IMG/VR virus record: IMGVR_UViG_3300023174_000087
Span: 51,202 to 115,201 of that record
Reading direction: 5' to 3' (one strand)
From: a virus
DNA length: 64,000 nucleotides
Below, in pieces: positions 1 to 56,520 of the stretch (positions are counted from its first letter, which is position 1; every line of letters begins with the position of its first letter). Position numbers and translations under genes: made by a program. The notes under the pieces are model-generated. The model worked only from the letters and a program-made list of their open reading frames with translations. It was not told the origin of the DNA and did no database searches.

Positions 1-3000
1 CATTTGGAAATACATTTTTAGGTTCAGATCTTGGTAAACAGGAAAAGAAAACATTTAAAGAAAACTCATCAAAGTTTGGTGTAGAGCAAGCAACCTCAGA
101 TCTTGCTCTTAAGTTATCTGCACAAGTCGCAGATGGAGTTCTTGGTAAAGACCAAGCAGAAAGCATCGCAGCAGCGCTTGCATTATCATTAAAAAATCAA
201 AAAATTGAAATGCAAGTAACTGGAAAAATGAGAACTATTTTGGGTCCAGATGGAGAAGATCTAAAAGATAAGCCATTAAAGACAAGAGTTTTACTTATTG
301 CTACAGCAAGACAAAGAAGCGAAAAAGCATTAAAAACAATTGAAACAAAAAGAGAAAATGGGGATAGCGCTAGAAAAGATATAGCAGCGCTTGCTGCATA
401 CAATATTAATAATCTTGAACTTGCAACAATGCAAGCAGACGCTGTTCAGTATGAATATGAAACACAAAAGAAGAAACTTGAAATTGAAATTGCTTCAACA
501 GCAAATGCTCAAAGAAAAGTAGAACTTGAAACTCAACTTGGTACACTAAACTCTAATAATCTTAAAAATACTGAAACAATGAACAACCAAGTTCTTATGA
601 ATATTAAACAAGCAGAACTTGATTTCCAAAAAGTTTATAGTGGATCTGTTTTGGGAAGTCAGGCAAATAGAGAGGACGCTTTCTTCGATGCCTCTAGAAC
701 TACAGTAACCAATGCTTATAAAGGTACAGATCAAGAAAAATCAGCATCCAATTTCTTAAAAAATACAAAGCAACTTGAGACTGGTGCAACATCTGGAACC
801 TATAATAGCAAAACAAGTTTATATGAAAAAAATGGTCTTGGAACTGCAAGAGCAGCACAAACATTCCAAGCAAAAATGGAACTATTGGTTGGCGGAAAAG
901 TAATTAGTCCAGATGAAGCAAATTCATGGATGAAGATGTTTAAGGGAAAACTAAATGAACTTGATTTAGCAATTAATACAAGCATTAAATTAAATGGCGC
1001 AGGTAAGACAAAAGAACTATTTAATATGTTCTCAGGATTTAGAAACAAAAAAGTTGCAACAAATATGATTCAACAGATTCTTTTAACAAAGAAAAATCCT
1101 GCAGAATTTGATGCAATTATGGAAACATTAAAGAATCTACAGGCACTTGATGGAACAGCAATAGATATGGAAGTTTTAATTAAATCTATTGGTTTATCTG
1201 GAGTAGATAAAATTAAAAAAGAATTTGAGCAAATTGAAGCATTAAAAGAAAAAGCAAAAAAAGAAGGCAAAAAGATAGACTTAGAAGAAGTAAAGAAAAA
1301 AGGCGGAACTGTAAATCCCGCAATTGAAGCACTTCAAAAAGATACTAAAGCCTATAAGAAATTTACTGACTTAAATGTAGAGCAACAGGGCGAGTACTTA
1401 CAAAAACTAACTGCTGCATATGCTTATCAATCACAATTAACAGACACACAACTTGAAGAAGAAGCAGCAACATGGGCTGCAGCACAGTTATGGGAAGAGG
1501 GAATTTCACAAGATGATGCAAAATACAAAGATTCATTAGCAGCAAAAATTGCAACCTATCTTTCAAAAGGACCCCAACAAAGAGCAGTTGATTCTTTAAT
1601 ACCATATCTAGATCCAACAATACCTTCAAAAACTGGAAATGGTGCAGGTGGTGGTGGTGGCGGAACAAGAGATGCAACTTATGATGATTTATTAAAGCGT
1701 TTGAGAAATGTTCGACTGGCTGCACTTAATGCAGCAGGAGGTTTTAAAGAACTTGAAAAAGCCATAGCAGCATCTGGAAGTAAAGCAATCAAGAATCAGT
1801 TTAATGGTTTAGAGCAACAACTTATTAAACTTGGAAAGTCTACTCAATTTTCTGATTATTTGGCGGGACTTGATCAAAAAGAATTAAATGTAATGGGCAA
1901 GGCTGCAACTAAAAATGGCATTGATCCAAATACAGGTAAAAAGAAAAAGGGTGTAAAGGCTGGAGACTTTATTCTTAGTGATAAAGGTCAAAAGATGGAA
2001 AAGGGCTTTGATAAAGCCGTTATAGGAGATTACAATAAAGAGCAGTTAAAATCTGTAACATTGGCCAAGCAGGAGATTGCAGCAAGAGGAAAACTTTTAG
2101 CACTGGGCTTTAAAGAAGTAGATATTCAGACAATGCTTGCAGATGAAAACTATAAGACACTTATTGCCACAGGCAAAGTAACTGATGCAGAATTAAAAAC
2201 AAATGCTGCACTAACCCAGCAAGCAAGAATTAGAAATCAAATTAATGGCGCAGTTGCTGGACAAAAAGAGTTGCAAAAAACTACAGAAAATCAAAAAAGA
2301 ATTCCAGAAGTTATAAAAATGATGCAACAGGCAGGAATGGATGCAGAAGCAATCCGTGCAGCAATATCAGATCCAGCAATGTTAGATACGTTAATAACTG
2401 GAATGGATAATTTTGCTACTTTGGCCAAAGATGCTCAAGCAGAATTTAATCATCTATTGTCACAGATTAATGAAATTCCAGAAAGAAAAATTGTTGAAAT
2501 TGCTTTTACTCAAACAAGAGAAGAAAAAATAATTAATGCTGCAAATGCCGCAGCAGAAATGTTTGATGCCTATAAGATGATTGATGAAAATACAATAAAG
2601 AATGCACAAGGAAATACTTATGCCAGCATTCAAACTCAGATGGATAACTTAAACAATCAAGCAAAAATTGTTCAAGACAGCATAAATATAACACAATCAC
2701 AGATTGATACTCTTCAGCAAGAAGTAGATAAAGATCAAAGAAATATAGAAACAAACTTTACTCGTCCAATTGAAGCAAAGCAAAGAGCAATTGAAAAACT
2801 AAATCGTACAGCAGAAATGAATTTTGTTCGTCCAATACAAACACTTCAAGATAGATCTGCTATTTTATCTCATGATTTAGAAGTAATGAGCCATGCAGCA
2901 GATCAGATTAATGAAAAATATGATAAGCAACAAGAAGCCCTTGCCAAGGTTTCTGAAATTAACCAACAAATTATTGAACAACAACAGCAACAACTTGGGT

Positions 3001-40736: not shown

Positions 40737-42161
40737 GTGATAATACTTGGAGTAAACGAAACCAGTCATGACGCCTCTGTATCTTTAATCAAAGACGGAG
40801 AGATACTTTTTGCGGGGCATGCCGAAAGATATAGCAAGCAAAAAAATGACTGGTATGTGAATGATAGTTTAATAAAAGATGCTTTACAATATGGTACACC
40901 AGATCACATAGCCTACTATGAAAAGCCTCTTCTAAAGGCCTCTAGGCTGGCTTTAAAGGGTGGTTCTGGAGAATGGAAGCCAAGGTTTGAACTTTCTGGG
41001 ATTCCAAGAAAATCTTTTACTCATCACTATTCTCACGCAGCAGCAGGGTATTATACAAGTGCATTTAATGATGCAGTGATTGTAGTTCTTGATGCAATTG
41101 GTGAATATAACACCTCCACAATTTGGGTGGGTGAAGGCGATAAAATTAAATTAAAATATAAGCAAAATTATCCTGTTAGTTTTGGATTGTTTTATTCAGC
41201 ATTTACTCAACTCATAGGTCTGATGCCAAACCAAGAAGAATATATTATGATGGGAATGGCTGCTTATGGGGACTGGACAAGATATTATAAAGAAGTAGAC
41301 GAATACTTTCCAAAATATGACAGACAAAAATATAACTTTCATAAGGGAATTAGTGACTGGGGCATTGAGATTACAGATCAGGACAGGTTTGATATTGCAG
41401 CAGCAGTTCAAGTTGTTTATGAACAAAGACTAAATGATTTTATGCGTATGGCAAAACATATTACTGGGAAAAAGAACTTAGTATTTATGGGAGGGTGTGC
41501 CCTCAACTCATCAGCAAATACATTACTTTGGAATATATTTGATATGATTTGGATCATGCCAAACCCTGGTGATGCTGGCAGTTCTTTGGGAGCAGCAGCA
41601 GCACTATACGGAAAGCATCTTGATTGGAAGACTCCATATCTTGGCTATGATCTTGGAGGAGAGTACCCTGTTCAGCAAATTGTGGACGGCATACTAAAAA
41701 ATGGAGTAGTGGCAGTAGCAACAGGAAGAGCAGAGTATGGCCCAAGAGCATTGGGTAATAGAAGTATTCTTGCTGATCCAAGAGACCCATTGATCAAAAA
41801 TAAAGTTAATCTAATTAAACAAAGAGAGTTGTTTAGACCATTTGCCCCAGTTGTTATGGAAGAGTGTGCATCTAAATGGTTTGATATGGACTTTACATCA
41901 CCATATATGCAGTACACAGTAAAGTGCTTACAGCCAGAAAAAATACCATCTGTTGTTCATGCTGATGGAACATCTAGAGTGCAAACAGTAAACAGAGATC
42001 AGCATCGTGGATTGTGGAGAACAATTAACAAGTTCTATCTTCAAACTGGCGTTCCAGTTTTATTAAATACAAGTCTTAACATTAAAGGCCAGCCATTGCT
42101 TAATGATGAAACAGATATTATTGAATGGGAAAAAGAATATAACTTCAAAATATGCAGGTAA
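40737..42161 (+). CDS. Carbamoyltransferase (CmcH/NodU/TobZ family)
   Basis: SHDAS; HHYSHAA; DAIGE; GGCALN; GDAGSSLG; EYGPRALGNRSILADP; RPFAP; LLNTSLN. Confidence 0.93.
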   Translation: MIILGVNETSHDASVSLIKDGEILFAGHAERYSKQKNDWYVNDSLIKDALQYGTPDHIAYYEKPLLKASRLALKGGSGEWKPRFELSGIPRKSFTHHYSHAAAGYYTSAFNDAVIVVLDAIGEYNTSTIWVGEGDKIKLKYKQNYPVSFGLFYSAFTQLIGLMPNQEEYIMMGMAAYGDWTRYYKEVDEYFPKYDRQKYNFHKGISDWGIEITDQDRFDIAAAVQVVYEQRLNDFMRMAKHITGKKNLVFMGGCALNSSANTLLWNIFDMIWIMPNPGDAGSSLGAAAALYGKHLDWKTPYLGYDLGGEYPVQQIVDGILKNGVVAVATGRAEYGPRALGNRSILADPRDPLIKNKVNLIKQRELFRPFAPVVMEECASKWFDMDFTSPYMQYTVKCLQPEKIPSVVHADGTSRVQTVNRDQHRGLWRTINKFYLQTGVPVLLNTSLNIKGQPLLNDETDIIEWEKEYNFKICR

Positions 42162-50919: not shown

Positions 50920-51524
50920 TTACTAACCCTTCAAAAAAAGATGACATCTATTTAAAAAATGTTGAAAAAATAGGAAAATCTCCAGAAAACATAAAGTTTA
51001 TAGAGGATGTACTATCTAAAGAAGAACATGCAACTTTGCTTGATTACGTAAATAAGCGTGAGTTGTGGATTCTTGAGCCTTGGGATTGCTATTCTGTTGG
51101 TATGGATCAGTTACCAGTTAATATTTTAAATATGCTAGAAAAAATATTTGCTATTGTTCACAAAAATGCTACAGAGGCTTATGGAGTAGACATTAATTAT
51201 TTTCAAAAAGAAAATATTGCATTATTTAAATTTGCAAAAGGTCTTGTTTTGCATCCACATATAGATACTGATTCCGCCGAATCAAACCATATTGCTTCAA
51301 TATATTATATTAACGATGAGTTTACTGGTGGCGAATTGTATTTTTCAGAACTTGATATAAATATTAAACCAAAGCCAAACAGTTTAGTATTTTTCCCTGG
51401 CAATGAAAACTATTTGCATGAAGTCAAAACAATTACAGGTGGAAATAGATATAGTTCGTCAATGTGGTTTCAGTTTACTGGTTCTTCTTTTAACAAGAAT
51501 GCAGAATGGTACAATAAAGAATGA
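50916..51524 (+). CDS. P4H-like 2OG-Fe(II) oxygenase
   Basis: PHID; YYINDEFTGGEL; FPGNENYLHEV..GNRY. Confidence 0.87.
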   Translation: MITNPSKKDDIYLKNVEKIGKSPENIKFIEDVLSKEEHATLLDYVNKRELWILEPWDCYSVGMDQLPVNILNMLEKIFAIVHKNATEAYGVDINYFQKENIALFKFAKGLVLHPHIDTDSAESNHIASIYYINDEFTGGELYFSELDINIKPKPNSLVFFPGNENYLHEVKTITGGNRYSSSMWFQFTGSSFNKNAEWYNKE

Positions 51525-52096
51525 TTGAAATTACCTCAGAAAATTCTATAGATAACATACAGGTTGTAGAAAATGTTTTACTAGAAGAAGAGCACAAAAA
51601 ATTGCTTGATTATGTAGTTAATGTTGAGGGGTGGCAAAAACAGCCTTGGGGTGTGAAGTTTTTTAATTCTGAAAAAGGACTATCTTCGGAGATTTCTGAC
51701 ATATTAGACAAGGCTATTCGAATTGCTTGGCAAAAATGTATAGATAAACATAATGTAAAACTTCGTGTTTTTGAAAAATCAGAAGTTCACTTAGTTAAAT
51801 TTGAAAAAGATTATTTAATGAACAAACATGTAGACACGGCTGGAGATTTTGCAGTTATTTATTATATTAATGATAACTACGATGGAGGAGAAATAAATTT
51901 CCCATGGCATAATTTAACAGTTAAGCCAAAGGCTAATAGTTTTATTTTATTCCCTAGCAACGAGCATTATTTGCATGAAGTGTTAATAAATAGTGCAGAT
52001 AGATACTCATCTCCTTTGTGGTTTAATATTGAAGGCACTCCTTATCGTGGAAATATAAATGAAACAGAAGGAACCGCTAGGACTGTTCAATATTAA
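51521..52096 (+). CDS. P4H-like 2OG-Fe(II) oxygenase
   Basis: KHVD; YYINDNYDGGEI; YLHEV..DRY. Confidence 0.87.
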   Translation: MIEITSENSIDNIQVVENVLLEEEHKKLLDYVVNVEGWQKQPWGVKFFNSEKGLSSEISDILDKAIRIAWQKCIDKHNVKLRVFEKSEVHLVKFEKDYLMNKHVDTAGDFAVIYYINDNYDGGEINFPWHNLTVKPKANSFILFPSNEHYLHEVLINSADRYSSPLWFNIEGTPYRGNINETEGTARTVQY

Positions 52097-52097
52097 A

Positions 52098-52256
52098 ATG
52101 AAAGATATTATAATGTCAATAATAACAGGTTTTGGATGTGGTGTAGTATTTGCTGCATTCAAATTGCCAGTTCCAGCACCACCAGTTTTTGCGGGAGTCG
52201 CAGGAATTATTGGGTTATGGATTGGTTTTACATTAATAACAAGAATTATATCCTAG
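52098..52256 (+). CDS. XapX / DUF1427 membrane protein
   Basis: G...G..F...KLPVPAPPVFAGVAGIIGLWIG. Confidence 0.8.
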   Translation: MKDIIMSIITGFGCGVVFAAFKLPVPAPPVFAGVAGIIGLWIGFTLITRIIS

Positions 52257-52266
52257 GAGGAATAAT

Positions 52267-52548
52267 ATGAATACAACACAACTAAAAGCAATGCTTGCAT
52301 CATACGGAAGATCAGTTCTTGGTGCTGCTATTGCTCTTTACGCTTCTGGCGTAACAGATCCAAAAACACTTGCTTATTCATTGCTTGGAGCCATCGTGCC
52401 CGTTGCATTGAGAGCGGTTAACCCTAATGATAAAGCGTTTGGCAAGTTGCCATCTGCTGAAGAAGTAGAGGTAGCCGTAAAGACTGCTAAAGTAGTCAAG
52501 AAAACTGCTAAGAAGACTCCTGCTAAAAAGGCAGCAGCAAAGAAGTAG
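52267..52548 (+). CDS. Holin-like membrane protein with Lys/Ala-rich tail
   Basis: ASYGRS; TM segments; RAVNPNDKAFG; SD AGGAGG. Confidence 0.55.
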   Translation: MNTTQLKAMLASYGRSVLGAAIALYASGVTDPKTLAYSLLGAIVPVALRAVNPNDKAFGKLPSAEEVEVAVKTAKVVKKTAKKTPAKKAAAKK

Positions 52549-52559
52549 ACCATTAGATT

Positions 52560-52591
52560 GGCAGGTCTGTTTATTTGACAGGCCTGCTTTT
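52560..52591 (+). terminator. Intrinsic terminator overlapping the hsp20 -35 box
   Basis: GCAGGTCTGT/ACAGGCCTGC stem followed by TTTT. Confidence 0.75.
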
Positions 52592-52603
52592 CTATGCTAT
52601 AAT
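52575..52603 (+). promoter_or_regulatory. Consensus promoter of hsp20
   Basis: TTGACA-17 nt-TATAAT with TG extension. Confidence 0.85.
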
Positions 52604-52660
52604 ATTTATACCTGCCCAACAGGGGGGTAAATTAACTTATTCGCTTGAAAGGGGAATAAA

Positions 52661-53065
52661 ATGGTAAAAACAGCACTGGATCTTTTTAATGATCCATTTT
52701 TTAATACCTTCTCAAATCTACAAAAAGTAACAACAACAACAAACTATCCACCTTATAATCAGATCAAACTAAATGATAAAGAGTATATTCTTTCATTTGC
52801 TTTGGCTGGCTTTTCTAAGGATGATGTCTCAGTATCGCTAGATAATCGCAAACTTACAATCAAGGGCGAGAAGCAGGACGCTGAGTTGCCAGAGGGAGCA
52901 GAGTATCTACACAAAGGCATTGCAGCCCGTAAATTTACAGATATCTTCACCCTTCCCGAGTTTGTTGAAGTTGTTGGGGCTGAATTTAAAGACGGTATCC
53001 TAGATATCAAACTTGAAAAGCAGATCCCAGAAGACAAACTTCCAAAATCTATTGAAATTCAGTAG
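52661..53065 (+). CDS. Small heat-shock protein Hsp20
   Basis: NYPPYN; ALAGF; YLHKGIAARKF; GILDI. Confidence 0.93.
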   Translation: MVKTALDLFNDPFFNTFSNLQKVTTTTNYPPYNQIKLNDKEYILSFALAGFSKDDVSVSLDNRKLTIKGEKQDAELPEGAEYLHKGIAARKFTDIFTLPEFVEVVGAEFKDGILDIKLEKQIPEDKLPKSIEIQ

Positions 53066-53077
53066 TATAATGGATAA

Positions 53078-53194
53078 CATTCCGCTATAAGACCTTAAGA
53101 AAGTTTTAGCAACGGATGCTCCTTTGAGTGGAGAGTTAGCAGGAGTCGAACCTTCGTGGCTAATAGACCTGAGCAGTCGTCTATAAACTGCTCA
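53078..53194 (+). ncRNA. Candidate structured ncRNA with a 3' pseudoknot
   Basis: TATAAT at 53066-53071; no ORF; three hairpins plus interlocking ATAGAC/GTCTAT and TGAGCAGT/ACTGCTCA pairings. Confidence 0.55.
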
Positions 53195-53198
53195 TTTA

Positions 53199-53888
53199 TT
53201 ATGAATTTCTTTTTATATATACTTCATGAAATCCAAGTTCATTTAATACAATACCGTCAACAGACCAGTTTTTGTTAAAATGTAAAAACTCGTTTACGCT
53301 TTGATATATTCCTACAGACATGTCGTAATGAATAGCATCATAATTTATGTAAGAAGTAAACCCTACAACTCCATTAACATTAACTATTTGATTACAATGT
53401 TTTAATGCATTTCTTATCATAAGCCTTCCTGATATTGCATCAAAAAGAATAAGGTCATATTTCTTATCTAAGGTAAAGAAAATATTTCTTGCATCGCCTT
53501 TTATTATAGTTATATCAGGATGATAAGAGAATTTATTTTTTATGTATTCTTCATGTGTCATTGAACTATCTTTTGGAGCAAGGCCTCCTGGATGTCTAAC
53601 TCCAGCAGCATTATCATATAAATCCATAAGATCTGCACTTTTGGCCTCTGTTGTGTCTATAAACATTTGAGCACTTTCCCCATAAGCAACACCTATTTCT
53701 AAGTACGATACATTTTTATTTAATGTTTTTGCATATTCATATTTTGAATTAAATAGTTTTGCACCGTTTAACTGATTTTGAGATATAGGTATTGCTCGTT
53801 CGATTTGGTCGTCATCGTATACATTTTTTTCGTCATACCCAATAGGCTCCATTATTTCTTTACCAGTGGACCATTTTTTATTTATCAT
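53199..53888 (-). CDS. SAM-dependent methyltransferase (Methyltransf_24-like)
   Basis: YLEIGVAYGES; IIKGDA; YDLILFDA. Confidence 0.75.
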   Translation of the reverse strand: MINKKWSTGKEIMEPIGYDEKNVYDDDQIERAIPISQNQLNGAKLFNSKYEYAKTLNKNVSYLEIGVAYGESAQMFIDTTEAKSADLMDLYDNAAGVRHPGGLAPKDSSMTHEEYIKNKFSYHPDITIIKGDARNIFFTLDKKYDLILFDAISGRLMIRNALKHCNQIVNVNGVVGFTSYINYDAIHYDMSVGIYQSVNEFLHFNKNWSVDGIVLNELGFHEVYIKRNS

Positions 53889-53960
53889 ACAGACAAGTAT
53901 ACCATTGACACCCTATAATATAGGCGTATAGCAGTCTAAACCGCATGGTATAATCATTAG

Positions 53961-54410
53961 ATGGAAGAATTAATAAACCTGTTAAAAGTCCTACTGGCAG
54001 ATAACATTACCCTTAAACTTAAGTCTCATGGGTATCACTGGAATGTAGAGGGAGATGATTTTCCTCAGTTTCATGAATTTTTTGGGGATATATATGCAGA
54101 CTACGAACAAGCAACAGACTCATATGCAGAGTTCTTACGTAAACTAGATACTTATGCACCATTTAAACTATCAAGGTTTATTCAACTAAATGAAGTTGGC
54201 GAGCCAGATATAAGTTCTGATCCAGTAGAAATGTCTAAAGATTTGCTTATGGCAAACGATATGGTTTTAACAAAATTAGTTGATGCAGTTGAACTTGCTA
54301 CAAAAAATAGACAACATGCACTTGCAAACTTCTTTGCAGAGCGTATGGACATGCACCAGAAATGGCACTGGATGCTCACTGCAGCCACCAAAGAAGTAGG
54401 TATGGACTAA
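53961..54410 (+). CDS. dps: Dps / ferritin-like DNA-protecting protein
   Basis: HGYHWNVEG..F.QFHEFF; D..AE; HQKWHWML. Confidence 0.92.
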   Translation: MEELINLLKVLLADNITLKLKSHGYHWNVEGDDFPQFHEFFGDIYADYEQATDSYAEFLRKLDTYAPFKLSRFIQLNEVGEPDISSDPVEMSKDLLMANDMVLTKLVDAVELATKNRQHALANFFAERMDMHQKWHWMLTAATKEVGMD

Positions 54411-55063
54411 TGTCTGATACACCAATGGATGTTTCTTACAATGCAATCGTAACTGATCCAACACCAGCAAACCCTTCATCAAATATTAATCCATCTGTTG
54501 GCATGAAGAAGCCACAATATAGTTTAAATCAATCAAGACCTGCAGGACCTGGAATACATAATAAGCCTGGTGTAAGTATTTGGGCTGGTTCTGCGTTTGG
54601 TAAATCAATTACTGCAGAAGTGGTTGCACCATCAACATATCAAGGGTGCGATTGCATGACTTGTAAAGAAATGAATGTGGATTGTCCAGACTGTCCTGTT
54701 TGTGCTAATCCAATTGCAGAGTCTATGGAAACGAAAGCAGATGCACCAATGCCAGAAAATCCAATAATGCCAACTAACACTTATCAAAAGTGTGAATGCG
54801 AAATGTGCATGGAACAAAACATTCCTTGCTCATCTTGCCCTGAATGTAGCGGGGGATTAGATGCAGAAACTCAAATGGCTATGTATGATTCATCAATTGG
54901 AAAAGCAGATCCATGCTGGGAAGGTTATGTTCAAAGAGGAATGAAACCAGGAGCAGATGGAAAACCAGTACCAAACTGTATACCAGTAGAAAAAACAGAA
55001 TCAATATTGTTTTCAGCAAAAGATTATACAAAACAAACACAAGTAGATAGGTTATTTAGGTAA
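54410..55063 (+). CDS. Cys-rich repeat protein with a CWxGY module
   Basis: Two CxCxxC-x6-CxxCPxC repeats; DPCWEGYVQRGMK..GKPVPNCIP. Confidence 0.65.
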   Translation: MSDTPMDVSYNAIVTDPTPANPSSNINPSVGMKKPQYSLNQSRPAGPGIHNKPGVSIWAGSAFGKSITAEVVAPSTYQGCDCMTCKEMNVDCPDCPVCANPIAESMETKADAPMPENPIMPTNTYQKCECEMCMEQNIPCSSCPECSGGLDAETQMAMYDSSIGKADPCWEGYVQRGMKPGADGKPVPNCIPVEKTESILFSAKDYTKQTQVDRLFR

Positions 55064-55200
55064 TGCCAAAAAAGAAATCACACGCATTTAATCCAATGCA
55101 AATTAAAGATGGTTGGATTGTTAGACTATATAAAGATGGTCGAATTAAATCTAAAATAGAACCATATTTACCAAAGCATAAGCCATCAACTAAAGCCTAA
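55063..55200 (+). CDS. Small basic protein (45 aa)
   Basis: MPKKK..QIKDGWIVRLYKDGRIK; TAATG overlap. Confidence 0.5.
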   Translation: MPKKKSHAFNPMQIKDGWIVRLYKDGRIKSKIEPYLPKHKPSTKA

Positions 55201-55203
55201 TTG

Positions 55204-55274
55204 CTTCCAGACATAGACTCGAACTATGATTCACGCCTTCAAAGGGCGTTGTCCTGCCATTGGACGATCTGGAA
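55204..55274 (-). tRNA. tRNA-Gln(TTG)
   Basis: TTCCAGA/TCTGGAA; ACGCC-CTTTGAA-GGCGT; TTCGAGT. Confidence 0.88.
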
Positions 55275-55278
55275 CTAG

Positions 55279-55351
55279 TATCCCCAACGGGATTCGAACC
55301 CGTGTTGCCACCGTGAAAGGGTGGAGTCCTAGGCCTCTAGACCATGGGGAC
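55279..55351 (-). tRNA. tRNA-Glu(TTC)
   Basis: GTCCCCA/TGGGGAT; CCACC-CTTTCAC-GGTGG; TTCGAAT. Confidence 0.92.
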
Positions 55352-55352
55352 T

Positions 55353-55426
55353 TGGAGCGAGTGACCAGAATCGAACTGGCACAACCAACTTGGAAGGATG
55401 GTGCACTACCATTATGCAACACTCGC
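55353..55426 (-). tRNA. tRNA-Gly(TCC)
   Basis: GCGAGTG/CACTCGC; loop CTTCCAA; CCA end encoded. Confidence 0.9.
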
Positions 55427-55430
55427 TTTG

Positions 55431-55503
55431 TACCCCTGGCAAGAATCGAACTTGCGACGCATGGCTTAGAAGTCCATCGTTCTGTCCACTGAACTACAGA
55501 GGT
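55431..55503 (-). tRNA. tRNA-Arg(TCT)
   Basis: ACCTCTG/CAGGGGT; loop CTTCTAA; TTCGATT. Confidence 0.9.
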
Positions 55504-55507
55504 TTAG

Positions 55508-55578
55508 TAGGCCTAGAAGGTAATGCTCCTTCTTCTCAGGATTAAAAGTCCTGAGCATCACTTTAATGCTTTAGGCCC
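55508..55578 (-). tRNA. tRNA-Lys(TTT) with non-canonical D and T loops
   Basis: GGGCCTA/TAGGCCT; CAGGA-CTTTTAA-TCCTG; T arm GAAGG-AGCATTA-CCTTC. Confidence 0.75.
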
Positions 55579-55582
55579 ATTG

Positions 55583-55656
55583 TACACCAGGTAGGACTTG
55601 AACCTACGATCTTCAGTATATAAGACTGATGCCTTAACCGACTTGGCTACTGGTGC
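55583..55656 (-). tRNA. tRNA-Ile(TAT)
   Basis: GCACCAG/CTGGTGT; TCAGT-CTTATAT-ACTGA; TTCAAGT; discriminator A. Confidence 0.85.
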
Positions 55657-55926
55657 TAGATATTATTTAATTAGTAATCCAAAAAATGTACCTAACAAAA
55701 AAGCACCAATTCCAACTGTCCAATGATAATACTTAAACATATAGTCTTTAATGATTGCATCTTTTACTTCTTGCTCAATATCATCAATATCAATCTTCAT
55801 TTTGATCTACTCCATATGTCATTTGAATATAACAAACAATCCATCCTGCTAAAAATGCAGGTATTAAAAATAATGCATGTACCATAATTACCTCCAGTCT
55901 ATATAATAATTATACTGAAGTAAATG

Positions 55927-56520
55927 CTAAAAGTCAAGTTGTCTTTTATATATAGCATAACGAGATTCTTCATATATATTTATTAATTCATCTAAACCAC
56001 TAATGCTATTGTATAAAATATCATAGGAACTCAAATCTTTTGATGTTGGAAATACATACATATTTTTGTTTTGAGCATAATTGAATCTAAGCATTTTTTC
56101 TACTTTTACATCAGGAAATATAAAATCTTCTTTATATCCACAATAATTTAAAAATATACTAAAACTTTTTTTAGGATTTTCAGTTATTTGCTCAAATGTA
56201 AAAGGCACTATGTTTTCAATATTGTCAACCATCAACAACATATATTTTTTAAAATCTTCAATAGATTTGGAGTGATCTATTTGTTCTAAATCTTCTTTAG
56301 AATATTTTTTATCTTGCAACCCCATAGCGATGTCGGATACAATTACATCTTTTGGGTTTCTTAGAACAGAAATAACCACAGAGTTTTCTACTTCTTTGTC
56401 TATTTTCCACCAAGGACTCTTATGTATAATCATTTTTGGGTTTATCACAGCAACATTATTAACTATAAAATTACTGGCAGATCTAGCATAACTTCTAACA
56501 AATAACTGCTTATACGTCAT
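55927..56520 (-). CDS. Sulfotransferase-like protein
   Basis: SYARSASNF; VLRNPKDVIVS; FEQITENP. Confidence 0.6.
   Translation of the reverse strand: MTYKQLFVRSYARSASNFIVNNVAVINPKMIIHKSPWWKIDKEVENSVVISVLRNPKDVIVSDIAMGLQDKKYSKEDLEQIDHSKSIEDFKKYMLLMVDNIENIVPFTFEQITENPKKSFSIFLNYCGYKEDFIFPDVKVEKMLRFNYAQNKNMYVFPTSKDLSSYDILYNSISGLDELINIYEESRYAIYKRQLDF

Follow-up and report, generated by a model that had tools for sequence, protein, structure and literature searches.

What lies in the short tract between an hsp20 gene and a convergent methyltransferase gene in an uncultured lake phage? The tract belongs to a window of 64,000 nucleotides (positions 51,202 to 115,201 of IMG/VR record IMGVR_UViG_3300023174_000087), whose source is a freshwater (lake) actinophage, judging by its phrog_1221 protein (52% identity to Streptomyces phages; 551 records, mostly actinophages). 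A sequence-only reading had proposed a promoter-driven structured RNA here, and all of the features that it named are present; the tract has no conserved ORF and is relatively GC-rich, as claimed (GC 0.44 vs. 0.338 for the window). We consider it probable that the locus is an autonomous small-RNA gene cassette of this phage, and that the predicted RNA is stable, end-sealed and probably protein-binding. The parts of the locus are listed here.

53063-53202, + strand: structured-RNA module, between hsp20 and the convergent methyltransferase gene
52661..53065, + strand: hsp20 gene, context (Pfam HSP20 1.5e-17; PHROG 432)
53199..53888, − strand: Methyltransf_24 gene, convergent, context only (Pfam 3.4e-06)
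53063..53071, + strand: putative −10-type promoter word TAGTATAAT, conserved at the module 5′ border
53072..53077, + strand: variable spacer (discriminator) of 6 nt, alignment columns 8-13
53078..53118, + strand: hairpin 1, closing stem C-A-(U)-UCCG/CGGAUG, inner stem 53088-93 with 53103-08
53119..53133, + strand: hairpin 2, CUCCU/UGGAG with a conserved GA in the loop, compensatory changes at three pairs
53135..53164, + strand: hairpin 3, lower stem GUUAGC/GCUAAU, upper stem GGAG/CUUC, apical loop UCGAAC
53165..53194, + strand: H-type pseudoknot, invariant within the RNA family, its S1 covarying in paralogues
53165-68 with 53179-82, + strand: pseudoknot S1, AGAC with GUCU, the supported core
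53170-77 with 53187-94, + strand: pseudoknot S2, UGAGCA(GU) with (AC)UGCUCA
53169, 53178 and 53183-86, + strand: pseudoknot loops L1 (C53169), L2 (C53178) and L3 (A-rich)
53195..53202, + strand: U-rich tail UUUAUUAU after S2, possibly a weak intrinsic-terminator tract

We compared ~90 distinct copies of the module from uncultured lake phages, 86 distinct copies entering the pair statistics. The lake actinophages that carry the RNA have genomes of ~115-119 kb where contigs appear complete. The borders of the module are sharp, in that the flanks outside TAGTATAAT...UGCUCA are unrelated in at least four genomic settings: downstream of hsp20, upstream of it (after a holin-like p93 gene), after another pseudoknot that closes hsp20, and beside the start of a methyltransferase gene. 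Gene order around hsp20 is shuffled even among phages whose hsp20 genes are 95-99% identical. Because the methyltransferase gene is placed elsewhere or in the opposite orientation relative to the RNA in relatives, it is not the partner of the RNA, and a riboswitch or leader for the downstream gene was rejected, as that gene differs between contexts and is convergent here. The RNA is tightly linked to hsp20: 74 of 80 hsp20-anchored loci contain it (75 matches, always on the hsp20 strand), and among 68 copies found without reference to hsp20, 56 lie within 1.5 kb of that gene on the same strand and 43 within 150 nt downstream of it. The RNA occurs once per genome, also in this 115-kb one, where the tRNA array is ~2 kb away; a weak second match of our model in the window (40914-41020, 18 bits) falls within a coding gene and was dismissed as chance.

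This tight linkage could instead reflect a role in cis, and the counts of copies close behind hsp20 fit a structured hsp20 3′ UTR, or an sRNA processed from one, that acts in cis or with hsp20, the TATAAT being no working promoter. (Message stability and stress control are examples of the roles such a UTR might have.) In the window, moreover, hsp20 has no end structure or pseudoknot of its own, and the module begins at its stop codon, TAG at 53063-65, which overlaps the conserved promoter word. Against a 3′ UTR stand the copies upstream of hsp20, after a separate hsp20-closing pseudoknot and beside the methyltransferase start, all of which bring the TATAAT with them. This hexamer, correctly placed by the earlier reading directly after the hsp20 stop (53066-71), is near-invariant at the module 5′ border in the 86 copies (one has TACAAT), whatever lies upstream, and the TAG of the promoter word persists where it does not serve as a stop codon, as in L053, in which it follows another pseudoknot. 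The spacer that follows is the sole poorly conserved stretch within the module, and since it varies while both of its neighbors are conserved, we favor a promoter over a UTR; the 3′ UTR reading seems to us rather unlikely.

By its letters, TAGTATAAT is a candidate promoter, with an A-rich tract upstream and no −35 box, though the −10 word might be conserved for some other reason. Start sites usually lie 6-8 nt from the −10 box. Transcription would accordingly start at ~53077-53079, and the expected +1 is also the first position of the conserved AUUCCG.

Does the tract fold beyond chance? From this sequence alone it does not, its folding energy being unremarkable (z = −1.5 for 135 nt and −1.0 for 121 nt), but by comparison across copies it does. 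Pairing holds in 95.9% of pair cells across the 86 distinct copies, vs. 38-46% with the partners slid; changes on both sides occur in 65 pair cells (22.9 ± 5 in shuffles, with 0 of 500 shuffles reaching 65) and at 11 pairs (7.2 ± 1.1 in shuffles). We scored a hand-written structure because RNAalifold, run on a MAFFT alignment whose gaps fell wrongly in hairpins 1 and 2, recovered only part of the fold. For the predicted transcript, the minimum-energy fold coincides with this comparative model. The sequence-only reading had named covariation on homologues as a check, and its absence, the last stem alone being kept as a bidirectional terminator, as a ground for giving the proposal up; covariation is present, with compensatory changes in hairpins 2 and 3. 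Sharp borders, a conserved −10 word with a variable spacer, and compensatory changes together support its proposal of a discrete, promoter-equipped, non-coding structured RNA, of ~117-120 nt.

The pairs also give the strand. Approximately 424 of 3480 pair cells (~12%) are G-U or U-G, which would be A-C mismatches on the minus strand, so that the RNA strand is plus. This bears on the notion of a decayed minus-strand tRNA gene, which arises because GGTTCGACTCC on the minus strand resembles a T arm and has a 22-nt blastn match, on that strand, to the tRNA-Pro T arm of a Bacillus phage (E = 5). No acceptor partner exists for it, however, and the module always points the same way as hsp20. Neither ARAGORN nor the Rfam tRNA and TLS models detect anything on either strand of 53066-53200, as expected from the earlier statement that the RNA is not a tRNA. 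With its wobble pairs on the plus strand only, a tRNA remnant is effectively refuted, and we give it next to no credence.

Within this fold, hairpin 1 keeps the closing stem that had been drawn for it, CAU.CCG (53078-84) with CGGAUG (53113-18), whereas the GCUA/UAGC pairing drawn inside is shared by only a few other copies. The inner stem that is conserved, 53088-93 with 53103-08, is 89% paired with few compensatory changes, and the closing words AUUCCG and CGGAU are invariant across all four body types described below. Hairpin 2, CUCC (53119-22) with GGAG (53130-33), was borne out by compensatory changes at pairs 59-74 (CG 71, UA 9, GC 6), 63-71 (CG 63, UA 11) and 64-70 (CG 19, UA 14, UG 5). 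The lower stem of hairpin 3, UUAGC (53136-40) with GCUAA (53159-63), likewise holds (pair 78-103: UA 61, UG 14, CG 10; pair 79-102: AU 59, GU 19, GC 8), but the register of its upper stem had to be revised to GGAG (53142-45) with CUUC (53152-55), since no other fits the variants of types B and C. Between the two stems lies a conserved A / GUG internal loop.

The copies fall into four "allelic" body types (A-D) that differ in their bodies but have a common promoter, 5′ closing stem and 3′ pseudoknot. Hairpin 2 or the loop word of hairpin 3 is missing from types C and D; this loop reads U-Y-G-A-A-Y in type A, CUGAAA in type B, UUU in type C and UCGCA in type D. As read from its letters, the word U-Y-G-A-A resembles a T-loop-type pentaloop (U-N-N-R-A closed by G-C), and may form one. 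For the type D body, a K-turn or C/D-box was tried and dropped because the G-A pairs could not be placed adjacent to the closing stem. No single-stranded run longer than 6 nt is conserved in the middle of the RNA.

The same middle could be read as a 20-residue peptide (consensus MSGELAGVESSWLIDLSSRL, TTG start in the window copy). In most type A copies this 20-codon ORF runs across hairpins 2 and 3, from a start in the hairpin 2 loop to a stop inside the pseudoknot. The frame is open in 52 of 86 type A/B copies, and the summed entropy by codon position (2.73 / 2.85 / 4.95) shows some third-position excess of variation. These variable third positions, however, are exactly the sites where G-U wobble preserves the stems, and the changes at positions 2-4 are non-conservative yet compensatory for hairpin 2. 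Sixteen of 72 copies have TCG, ACG, CTG or ATT at the start position, and in one copy a stop interrupts the frame; a clear Shine-Dalgarno sequence is lacking, and types B-D have no equivalent ORF. We rejected a small protein gene on the lost start, the frame absent in types B-D and the wobble positions, and hold a peptide to be very improbable.

At the 3′ end, the H-type pseudoknot proposed by the earlier reading is upheld, its stem 1 covarying in paralogous copies. Of this stem, first drawn as AUAGAC (53163-68) with GUCUAU (53179-84), the core AGAC/GUCU stands, whereas the base of hairpin 3 competes for the two outer pairs (A53163, U53164); the second, interlocked stem pairs UGAGCAGU (53170-77) with ACUGCUCA (53187-94) as proposed. 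Because neither the pseudoknot nor the closing stem of hairpin 1 varies within the RNA family, their pairing here rests on paralogues. When tested on the window copy (53165-53194), the pseudoknot proved to belong to a widespread phage post-gene family, with an S1 of 3-4 covarying pairs, a 1-nt L1 (C), S2 UGAGCA/UGCUCA and an A-rich L3. This ~30-nt motif occurs after genes in phages and MAGs of many phyla and is absent from Rfam 15. Over 55 distinct combinations the inner S1 pairs are paired in 55/55, 55/55 and 54/55, vs. 5.4/55 fully paired in shuffles, with a covariation score of 0.337 vs. 0.080. At pair 6-19 we counted AU 24, UA 14, GC 11 and CG 6, and at pair 7-18 UA 35, AU 14 and CG 7, with none unpaired at either. 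Two further copies in the same genome (S1 = UAUC/GAUG and AUUC/GAAU) do follow stop codons, whereas the window copy follows hairpin 3 of a non-coding RNA.

Compared with the widespread motif, the RNA-linked long form has an S2 lengthened by GU/AC (8 bp), an L3 cut down to 4 nt and a U-rich tract behind it. The 8 nt past S2 contain 5 or more T in 72 of 90 RNA-linked pseudoknots, vs. mostly 2-3 in stand-alone ones. Although the 8-bp S2 runs directly into UUUAUUAU, a terminator scan made no call there, because the loop is longer than the limit of the tool. Most copies have no T tract, and in the viral set 37 of 144 are followed by a tRNA gene after 3-14 nt; a motif so often placed just ahead of a tRNA gene is not generally a terminator. 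Among other phages that bear the pseudoknot, the same RNA was found in none of 100 loci (952 kb).

Plant-virus tRNA-like structures are a precedent for a pseudoknotted acceptor arm, and the three hairpins could be cast as D, anticodon and T arms in a mimic or decoy that engages tRNA enzymes or anticodon nucleases. Hairpin 3, with its U-Y-G-A-A loop closed by G-C, abuts the pseudoknot so that the helices could stack; pseudoknots of the family often adjoin tRNA genes, as just described, and in the viral set ACC(A) often follows the motif directly. PMC12710915 describes cleavage by RNase P of small pseudoknots with 3′ RCCA, which would suit such a mimic. We nevertheless think a tRNA-like mimic doubtful to a considerable degree: ARAGORN and the Rfam tRNA and TLS models fail to match, hairpin 2 (4-5 bp, 5-7 nt loop) has no constant U33, body types C and D dispense with hairpin 2 or the loop word, and the window copy lacks CCA and has an AUUU tail (AUUUAUUA after the pseudoknot; most relatives have AUUU).

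Searches for a known family agree with the earlier statement that none could be assigned. Rfam 15 gave no match even with the laxest filters, either with body types A-D or across 52000-56500 at E ≤ 10, where it found nothing except the tRNA array; the best score on 53060-53215 was ErsA at 13.4 bits, against a threshold of 50. In a DNA search of cultured phages, the locus and the element had no blastn relative among 50,697 phage records, only short chance or T-arm-like matches, and a literature search with the motif words returned only unrelated primer matches. No convincing antisense target emerged from RNAduplex on 145 translation-start regions, where the best energy of −38.8 compares with shuffled minima of −27.9 to −36.8, a result that carries little weight. 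A type III antitoxin RNA (ToxI-like) was rejected for want of a 34-45 nt tandem array or an endoribonuclease toxin neighbor; tandem repeats are absent from 52400-53900 apart from an unrelated 11-nt pair.

Several known systems resemble the cassette in part. The small stable RNAs of phage T4 (species 1 and 2, rnaC and rnaD) are short, highly structured and conserved, and their function is unknown. The lake-phage RNA is likewise phage-encoded, short, highly structured and conserved, a likeness by description for which we claim no sequence relation. The T4 RNAs are processed from a tRNA cluster transcript, whereas the lake-phage RNA has its own −10 box, an hsp20 link and a pseudoknot end. The pseudoknot of T2/T4 gene 32 mRNA, known from NMR work, lies in the 5′ leader and nucleates gp32 autoregulation. 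Ours shares its two stacked stems, its 1-nt loop 1 across a stem 2 of 6-7 bp and its longer loop across stem 1, and with this geometry the fold is sterically credible; unlike it, ours is a repeated motif outside 5′ leaders and has no sequence similarity to it. The preQ1-I riboswitch is also a small H-type pseudoknot with an A-rich 3′ tail in the stem 1 groove, and the words ...CUAUAAA(A)AC... are alike. In contrast, our motif lies 3′ of genes and of the RNA, not in 5′ leaders of queuosine genes, and 156 nt gave no Rfam PreQ1 match even at E ≤ 10; with a stem 2 of 6-8 bp and joining loops of 1 nt, it has no ligand pocket. Finally, the exoribonuclease-resistant viral RNAs (xrRNA, coremin; PMC10321173) are like ours in being a compact knot-like fold at a viral RNA end and a proposed exonuclease stop, but xrRNA blocks the eukaryotic 5′-3′ enzyme Xrn1 from the 5′ side, whereas the lake-phage cap stands at the 3′ end and would face bacterial 3′-5′ enzymes.

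Also comparable are the PeSL composite promoter-terminator cassettes of T4-type phages (PMC2839356, PMC4122927), in which conserved promoter and stem-loop signals bracket shuffled modules of hyperplastic regions. The lake-phage module similarly moves among near-identical phages and, with four contexts and unrelated flanks, qualifies as a PeSL-type mobile regulatory cassette; it differs in its actinophage setting, in having a pseudoknot instead of a plain stem-loop as its 3′ signal, and in carrying a structured RNA instead of an ORF. One could go further and suppose that the two signals merely mark recombination joints in a hyperplastic region, the RNA between them having no function. The shuffled gene order around hsp20 would fit, as would the extended −10 of the next gene (TGCTACAAT), which in many relatives follows the pseudoknot and overlaps its tail, and a stem-loop fused to a perfect promoter 5′ of hsp20 (52560-52603). 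A functionless spacer is unlikely, however, because conservation, with compensatory base-pair changes, extends over the ~90 nt that separate the signals, and the RNA is retained in 74 of 80 loci, and we rate this idea as having only a slender chance.

We return to the small-RNA gene cassette. The −10-type promoter TAGTATAAT would start transcription at ~53078, yielding an RNA of ~120 nt with a 5′-end-closing stem (AUUCCG/CGGAU), two more hairpins, a compact H-type pseudoknot and a short U-rich tract. The two constant ends would serve as a stability scaffold, the closed 5′ stem hindering 5′-end-dependent RNases and the pseudoknot defining and shielding the 3′ end; hsp20 read-through transcripts would end at the same cap. 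The middle would be the specificity part, exchangeable at the same locus (at least four types), and would most likely bind a protein or form tertiary structure, presumably acting in trans, as opposed to serving as an antisense seed. The roles put forward in the earlier reading (decoy, anti-defence or nuclease-resistant RNA) are guesses, of which nuclease resistance alone gains indirect support, from the positions that the pseudoknot family occupies. A broader version, which we advance tentatively and think distinctly less likely than not to hold, is that the RNA is one allele of a modular, end-sealed RNA "chassis" whose bodies are diversifying decoys or sponges for host factors and whose pseudoknot is a general 3′ exonuclease cap after processing. 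Candidate factors for such a chassis are a defence nuclease, a tRNA enzyme, or an hsp20-linked stress or chaperone partner, and the cap would serve prokaryotic viruses in general, in phages of many bacterial and some archaeal phyla.

To our knowledge, phage small RNAs are few, and nearly all come from cultured coliphages. Here, an abundant group of uncultured lake actinophages almost universally carries an RNA that matches no catalogued family and is under clear structural selection. Its unusual design (promoter, closed 5′ stem, exchangeable body and pseudoknot cap) suggests how phages may build long-lived RNAs, and the placement of the pseudoknot just before tRNA genes leads to the testable idea that it provides protected 3′ ends for single messages within a polycistronic phage transcript. 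Because the hosts of this phage group, as far as we know, lack Hfq-type sRNA biology, a phage RNA that is stable and binds protein would introduce a new kind of player.

The predicted structured RNA occupies the tract between hsp20 and a convergent methyltransferase gene:

52661-53065, plus strand: hsp20 (Pfam HSP20), with its stop codon TAG at 53063-65
53066-71, plus strand: TATAAT, directly 3' of the hsp20 TAG
53199-53888, minus strand: Methyltransf_24 gene, convergent, its stop bounding the RNA tract

The TATAAT thus sits where the sequence-only reading had placed it, and the ~125 nt that follow contain no conserved ORF and have a GC content of 0.44 (0.338 for the window), in agreement with the ORF-less, relatively GC-rich tract described there. 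Neither ARAGORN nor Rfam detected a tRNA in this tract, in line with the sequence-only reading that it is not one; they found 7 and 6 tRNAs, respectively, in the rest of the window. Single-sequence folding was unexceptional (z = −1.5 and −1.0), so the case for an RNA rests on comparison. Just 5' of hsp20, at 52560-52603, a stem-loop of 12 bp overlaps a perfect TTGACA-17-TATAAT promoter (with TG), and from its sequence this element is a PeSL-like composite terminator-promoter. Its tail word TTTCTATGCTATAAT resembles TTTCCTATGCTACAAT, found 3' of the RNA's pseudoknot in relatives.

A search of IMG/VR for hsp20 yielded 80 loci in which the protein is 95-99% identical. The RNA tract recurs in these loci at 80-95% identity, but its position varies: it lies directly 3' of hsp20, ~90 nt 3' of hsp20 beyond a separate stem-loop, between a holin-like p93 gene and hsp20, or adjoining the start of a methyltransferase gene. 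When copies were aligned with 40-nt flanks, conservation began exactly at (A/G)TAGTATAAT and stopped at ...ACUGCUCA(UUU), and the flanks outside these borders were mutually unrelated. Scanning for the 3' end as a DNA pattern gave at least ~90 distinct full copies. A covariance model built here produced 75 matches in 74 of the 80 loci, every one on the hsp20 strand, and a single match (145 bits) in the window's genome; it found no copy in 952 kb from other phages with the same pseudoknot. Among 68 copies gathered independently of hsp20, 56 lie no more than 1.5 kb from an hsp20 gene of the same orientation. Such tight linkage would suit a 3' UTR or processing product of hsp20, but some copies lie upstream of hsp20 and others behind a separate pseudoknot, and we consider this origin unlikely. 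Gene order near hsp20 is strongly shuffled across the 80 loci despite the near-identity of the protein; the methyltransferase, Dps-like ferritin, 2OG-Fe(II) oxygenase paralogue and p233 genes change place or orientation, or are absent. One locus (L078) has a good copy 3' of hsp20 and a second, degenerate-looking copy adjoining the methyltransferase start (2186-2309, plus strand; 27.7 bits).

Across 86 aligned copies, TATAAT is near-invariant (there is a single TACAAT), the 6-8 nt after it form the sole poorly conserved stretch, and an invariant AUUCCG begins thereafter. This is the pattern expected of a −10 box, a discriminator and a start at ~53077-53079, from which we infer that TATAAT is a −10 box with promoter activity. 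The preceding TAG is retained even where no stop codon is involved, and A-rich sequence always lies upstream of TATAAT/TAG; no −35 box was found upstream of this TATAAT.

We scored a hand-written structure on a MAFFT alignment of 86 distinct RNA copies (A1). Paired cells amounted to 95.9%, vs. 38-46% with partners slid. Covariation among homologues, proposed earlier as a check on the fold, was present: both sides had changed at 11 pairs (7.2 ± 1.1 in shuffles) and in 65 cells (22.9 ± 5.0), values reached by 0 of 500 shuffles in either case. Hairpin 2 (53119-33) contains three compensatory pairs (e.g. CG 71 / UA 9 / GC 6), and in hairpin 3 the lower stem (53135-40/53159-64) varies as UA 61 / UG 14 / CG 10 and AU 59 / GU 19 / GC 8; in hairpin 1, support for the inner stem is weak and the closing stem shows no variation. 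Together with sharp borders in four contexts, the compensatory pairs in hairpins 2 and 3 support the core of the sequence-only reading, a discrete structured RNA. All the stems it named are present where it put them. The upper stem of hairpin 3, however, is not AGG/CCU but GGAG/CUUC, bordered by a conserved A / GUG internal loop, a register fixed by body types B and C. Similarly, the 6-bp stem 1 drawn for the pseudoknot retains its four-pair core, AGAC/GUCU, whereas the two extra pairs (53163-64 with 53183-84) would form at the expense of the base of hairpin 3. Folding 53078-53198 to minimum energy reproduces the comparative model. G-U pairs fill about 424 of the 3480 cells; on the minus strand each would become a mismatch, which places the RNA on the plus strand. 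That the tract is a minus-strand tRNA remnant is barely conceivable.

Four body types, A (the window copy) to D, occupy the same position in hsp20 loci. They have in common the promoter, the AUUCCG/CGGAU closing stem and the 3' pseudoknot, and differ in the interior of hairpin 1, the presence of hairpin 2, and hairpin 3. No type matched an Rfam model, nor did the pseudoknot; the sequence-only reading had likewise assigned the RNA to no family. A 20-codon ORF (53125-53187, plus strand) begins in the loop of hairpin 2 and terminates at a UAA within the pseudoknot. The frame is open in 52 of the 86 copies, but its start is not conserved (TTG in the window copy, ATG in most relatives) and it is absent from the other body types; we regard an encoded 20-residue peptide as highly improbable.

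Both pseudoknot stems are invariant within the RNA family, partly because the search pattern fixed them. Looser searches gave a family of ~30-nt motifs, NNNC-C-UGAGCA-N-GNNN-(A-rich)-UGCUC(A), in which stem 1 changes sequence yet stays complementary (e.g. AGAC/GUCU, AGUC/GACU, AUUC/GAAU, UUUC/GAAA, ACUC/GAGU, GCAC/GUGU). Two further copies lie in the window's own genome (locus L201), outside the window:

L201:1650-1670 (genome 4649-4669), minus strand: stem 1 AUUC/GAAU, between a 340-codon phrog_1221 gene and a tRNA-Asp gene starting 3 nt later
L201:4100-4120 (genome 7099-7119), minus strand: stem 1 UAUC/GAUG, 3' of a 92-codon ORF

The second copy is without a T tract, and no promoter is visible before the next gene ~50 nt downstream. 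The phrog_1221 protein matched 551 phage records, mainly Mycobacterium, Streptomyces, Microbacterium, Arthrobacter and Gordonia phages, with the best matches in Streptomyces phages of ~131 kb (52% identity), which supports a lake actinophage as the source of the complete, 115,201-bp IMG/VR virus record, of which the window covers bases 51202-115201.

With both stem-1 arms left free, a scan returned 146 instances representing 55 different combinations. Among these 55, pairing at the three inner positions holds in 55, 55 and 54, and the full four-pair stem forms in 40, vs. 5.4 in shuffles. In the pseudoknot-family alignment (A3), stem-1 pairs vary as AU 24 / UA 14 / GC 11 / CG 6 and UA 35 / AU 14 / CG 7, with zero unpaired cells; slid, pairing is 25-38%. 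This covariation argues that the interlocked H-type fold recognized by the sequence-only reading is real. A 1-nt loop crosses the 6-7 bp stem 2 and an A-rich loop of 4-6 nt crosses stem 1, the geometry of the T2/T4 gene 32 pseudoknot, with its short loop over stem 2 and longer loop over stem 1, so the fold is sterically sound. Topology and A-rich tail also resemble those of PreQ1, but the Rfam PreQ1 model was unmatched. Exact pseudoknot words occur in MAG contigs among the GTDB genomes, assigned to numerous bacterial phyla and to some archaea (labelled Lachnospiraceae, Aminicenantes, Saccharibacteria, Patescibacteria, Bacteroidales, Planctomycetota, Lactobacillus, Thermoplasmata and others), with stem 1 formed in 83 of 88 instances; these contigs probably derive from viruses or prophages. 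In blastn, the pseudoknot part alone matched two crAss-like phages from human faeces at 85% (NC_055895.1 36910-36945; NC_055899.1 18471-18502), which hints that the motif extends to such phages.

In most cases the motif lies 0-8 nt 3' of a stop triplet, usually without a T tract. A tRNA gene begins 3-14 nt after it in 37 of 144 viral instances, 32 of them tRNA-Asp and so largely one syntenic context. These junctions are too short to hold a promoter, so transcription must continue across them, and RNase P cutting at the tRNA 5' end would leave an upstream RNA ending just beyond the pseudoknot. This speaks for a cap or mark at the 3' end more than for a general terminator. When attached to the RNA, the pseudoknot has stem 2 lengthened to 8 bp and, among the matches listed, at least 5 T in the next 8 nt in 72 of 90 copies, and may also terminate transcription. 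That promoter and 3' end amount to a bare PeSL-like promoter-terminator cassette (PMC2839356, PMC4122927) is very unlikely.

The 4 nt 3' of viral pseudoknots are biased (+1 A 65%, +2 C 51%, +3 C 47%; G only 2-3% at +2 to +4), ACCA being the commonest tetramer (12 of 144, counts that are not independent, many instances sharing one synteny). This flank recalls the RCCA that RNase P requires, according to PMC12710915, in order to cleave pseudoknots. The frequent ACC(A), the tRNA neighbours of the family and a hairpin 3 that may be T-loop-like and could stack on the pseudoknot would fit a tRNA-like mimic; the window copy lacks CCA and no model matched, making this quite unlikely.

Conserved unpaired runs never exceed 6 nt and no antisense target stood out among 145 translation-start regions, so an RNA that binds protein or adopts a tertiary fold is more likely than a base-pairing regulator. 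The predicted ends are closed, by a stem at +1 and the pseudoknot at the 3' end, and the middle is exchangeable. On this basis we favour, as the probable reading, a small RNA that is stable, protected at its ends, acts in trans and is transcribed from a promoter of its own. Transcripts reading through from hsp20 would share its pseudoknot cap, since hsp20 is without an end structure of its own in the window. Judged by comparison of sequences, the RNA is an uncatalogued phage small-RNA family of unusual modular design, whose predicted 3' end belongs to a widespread, likewise uncatalogued pseudoknot family.
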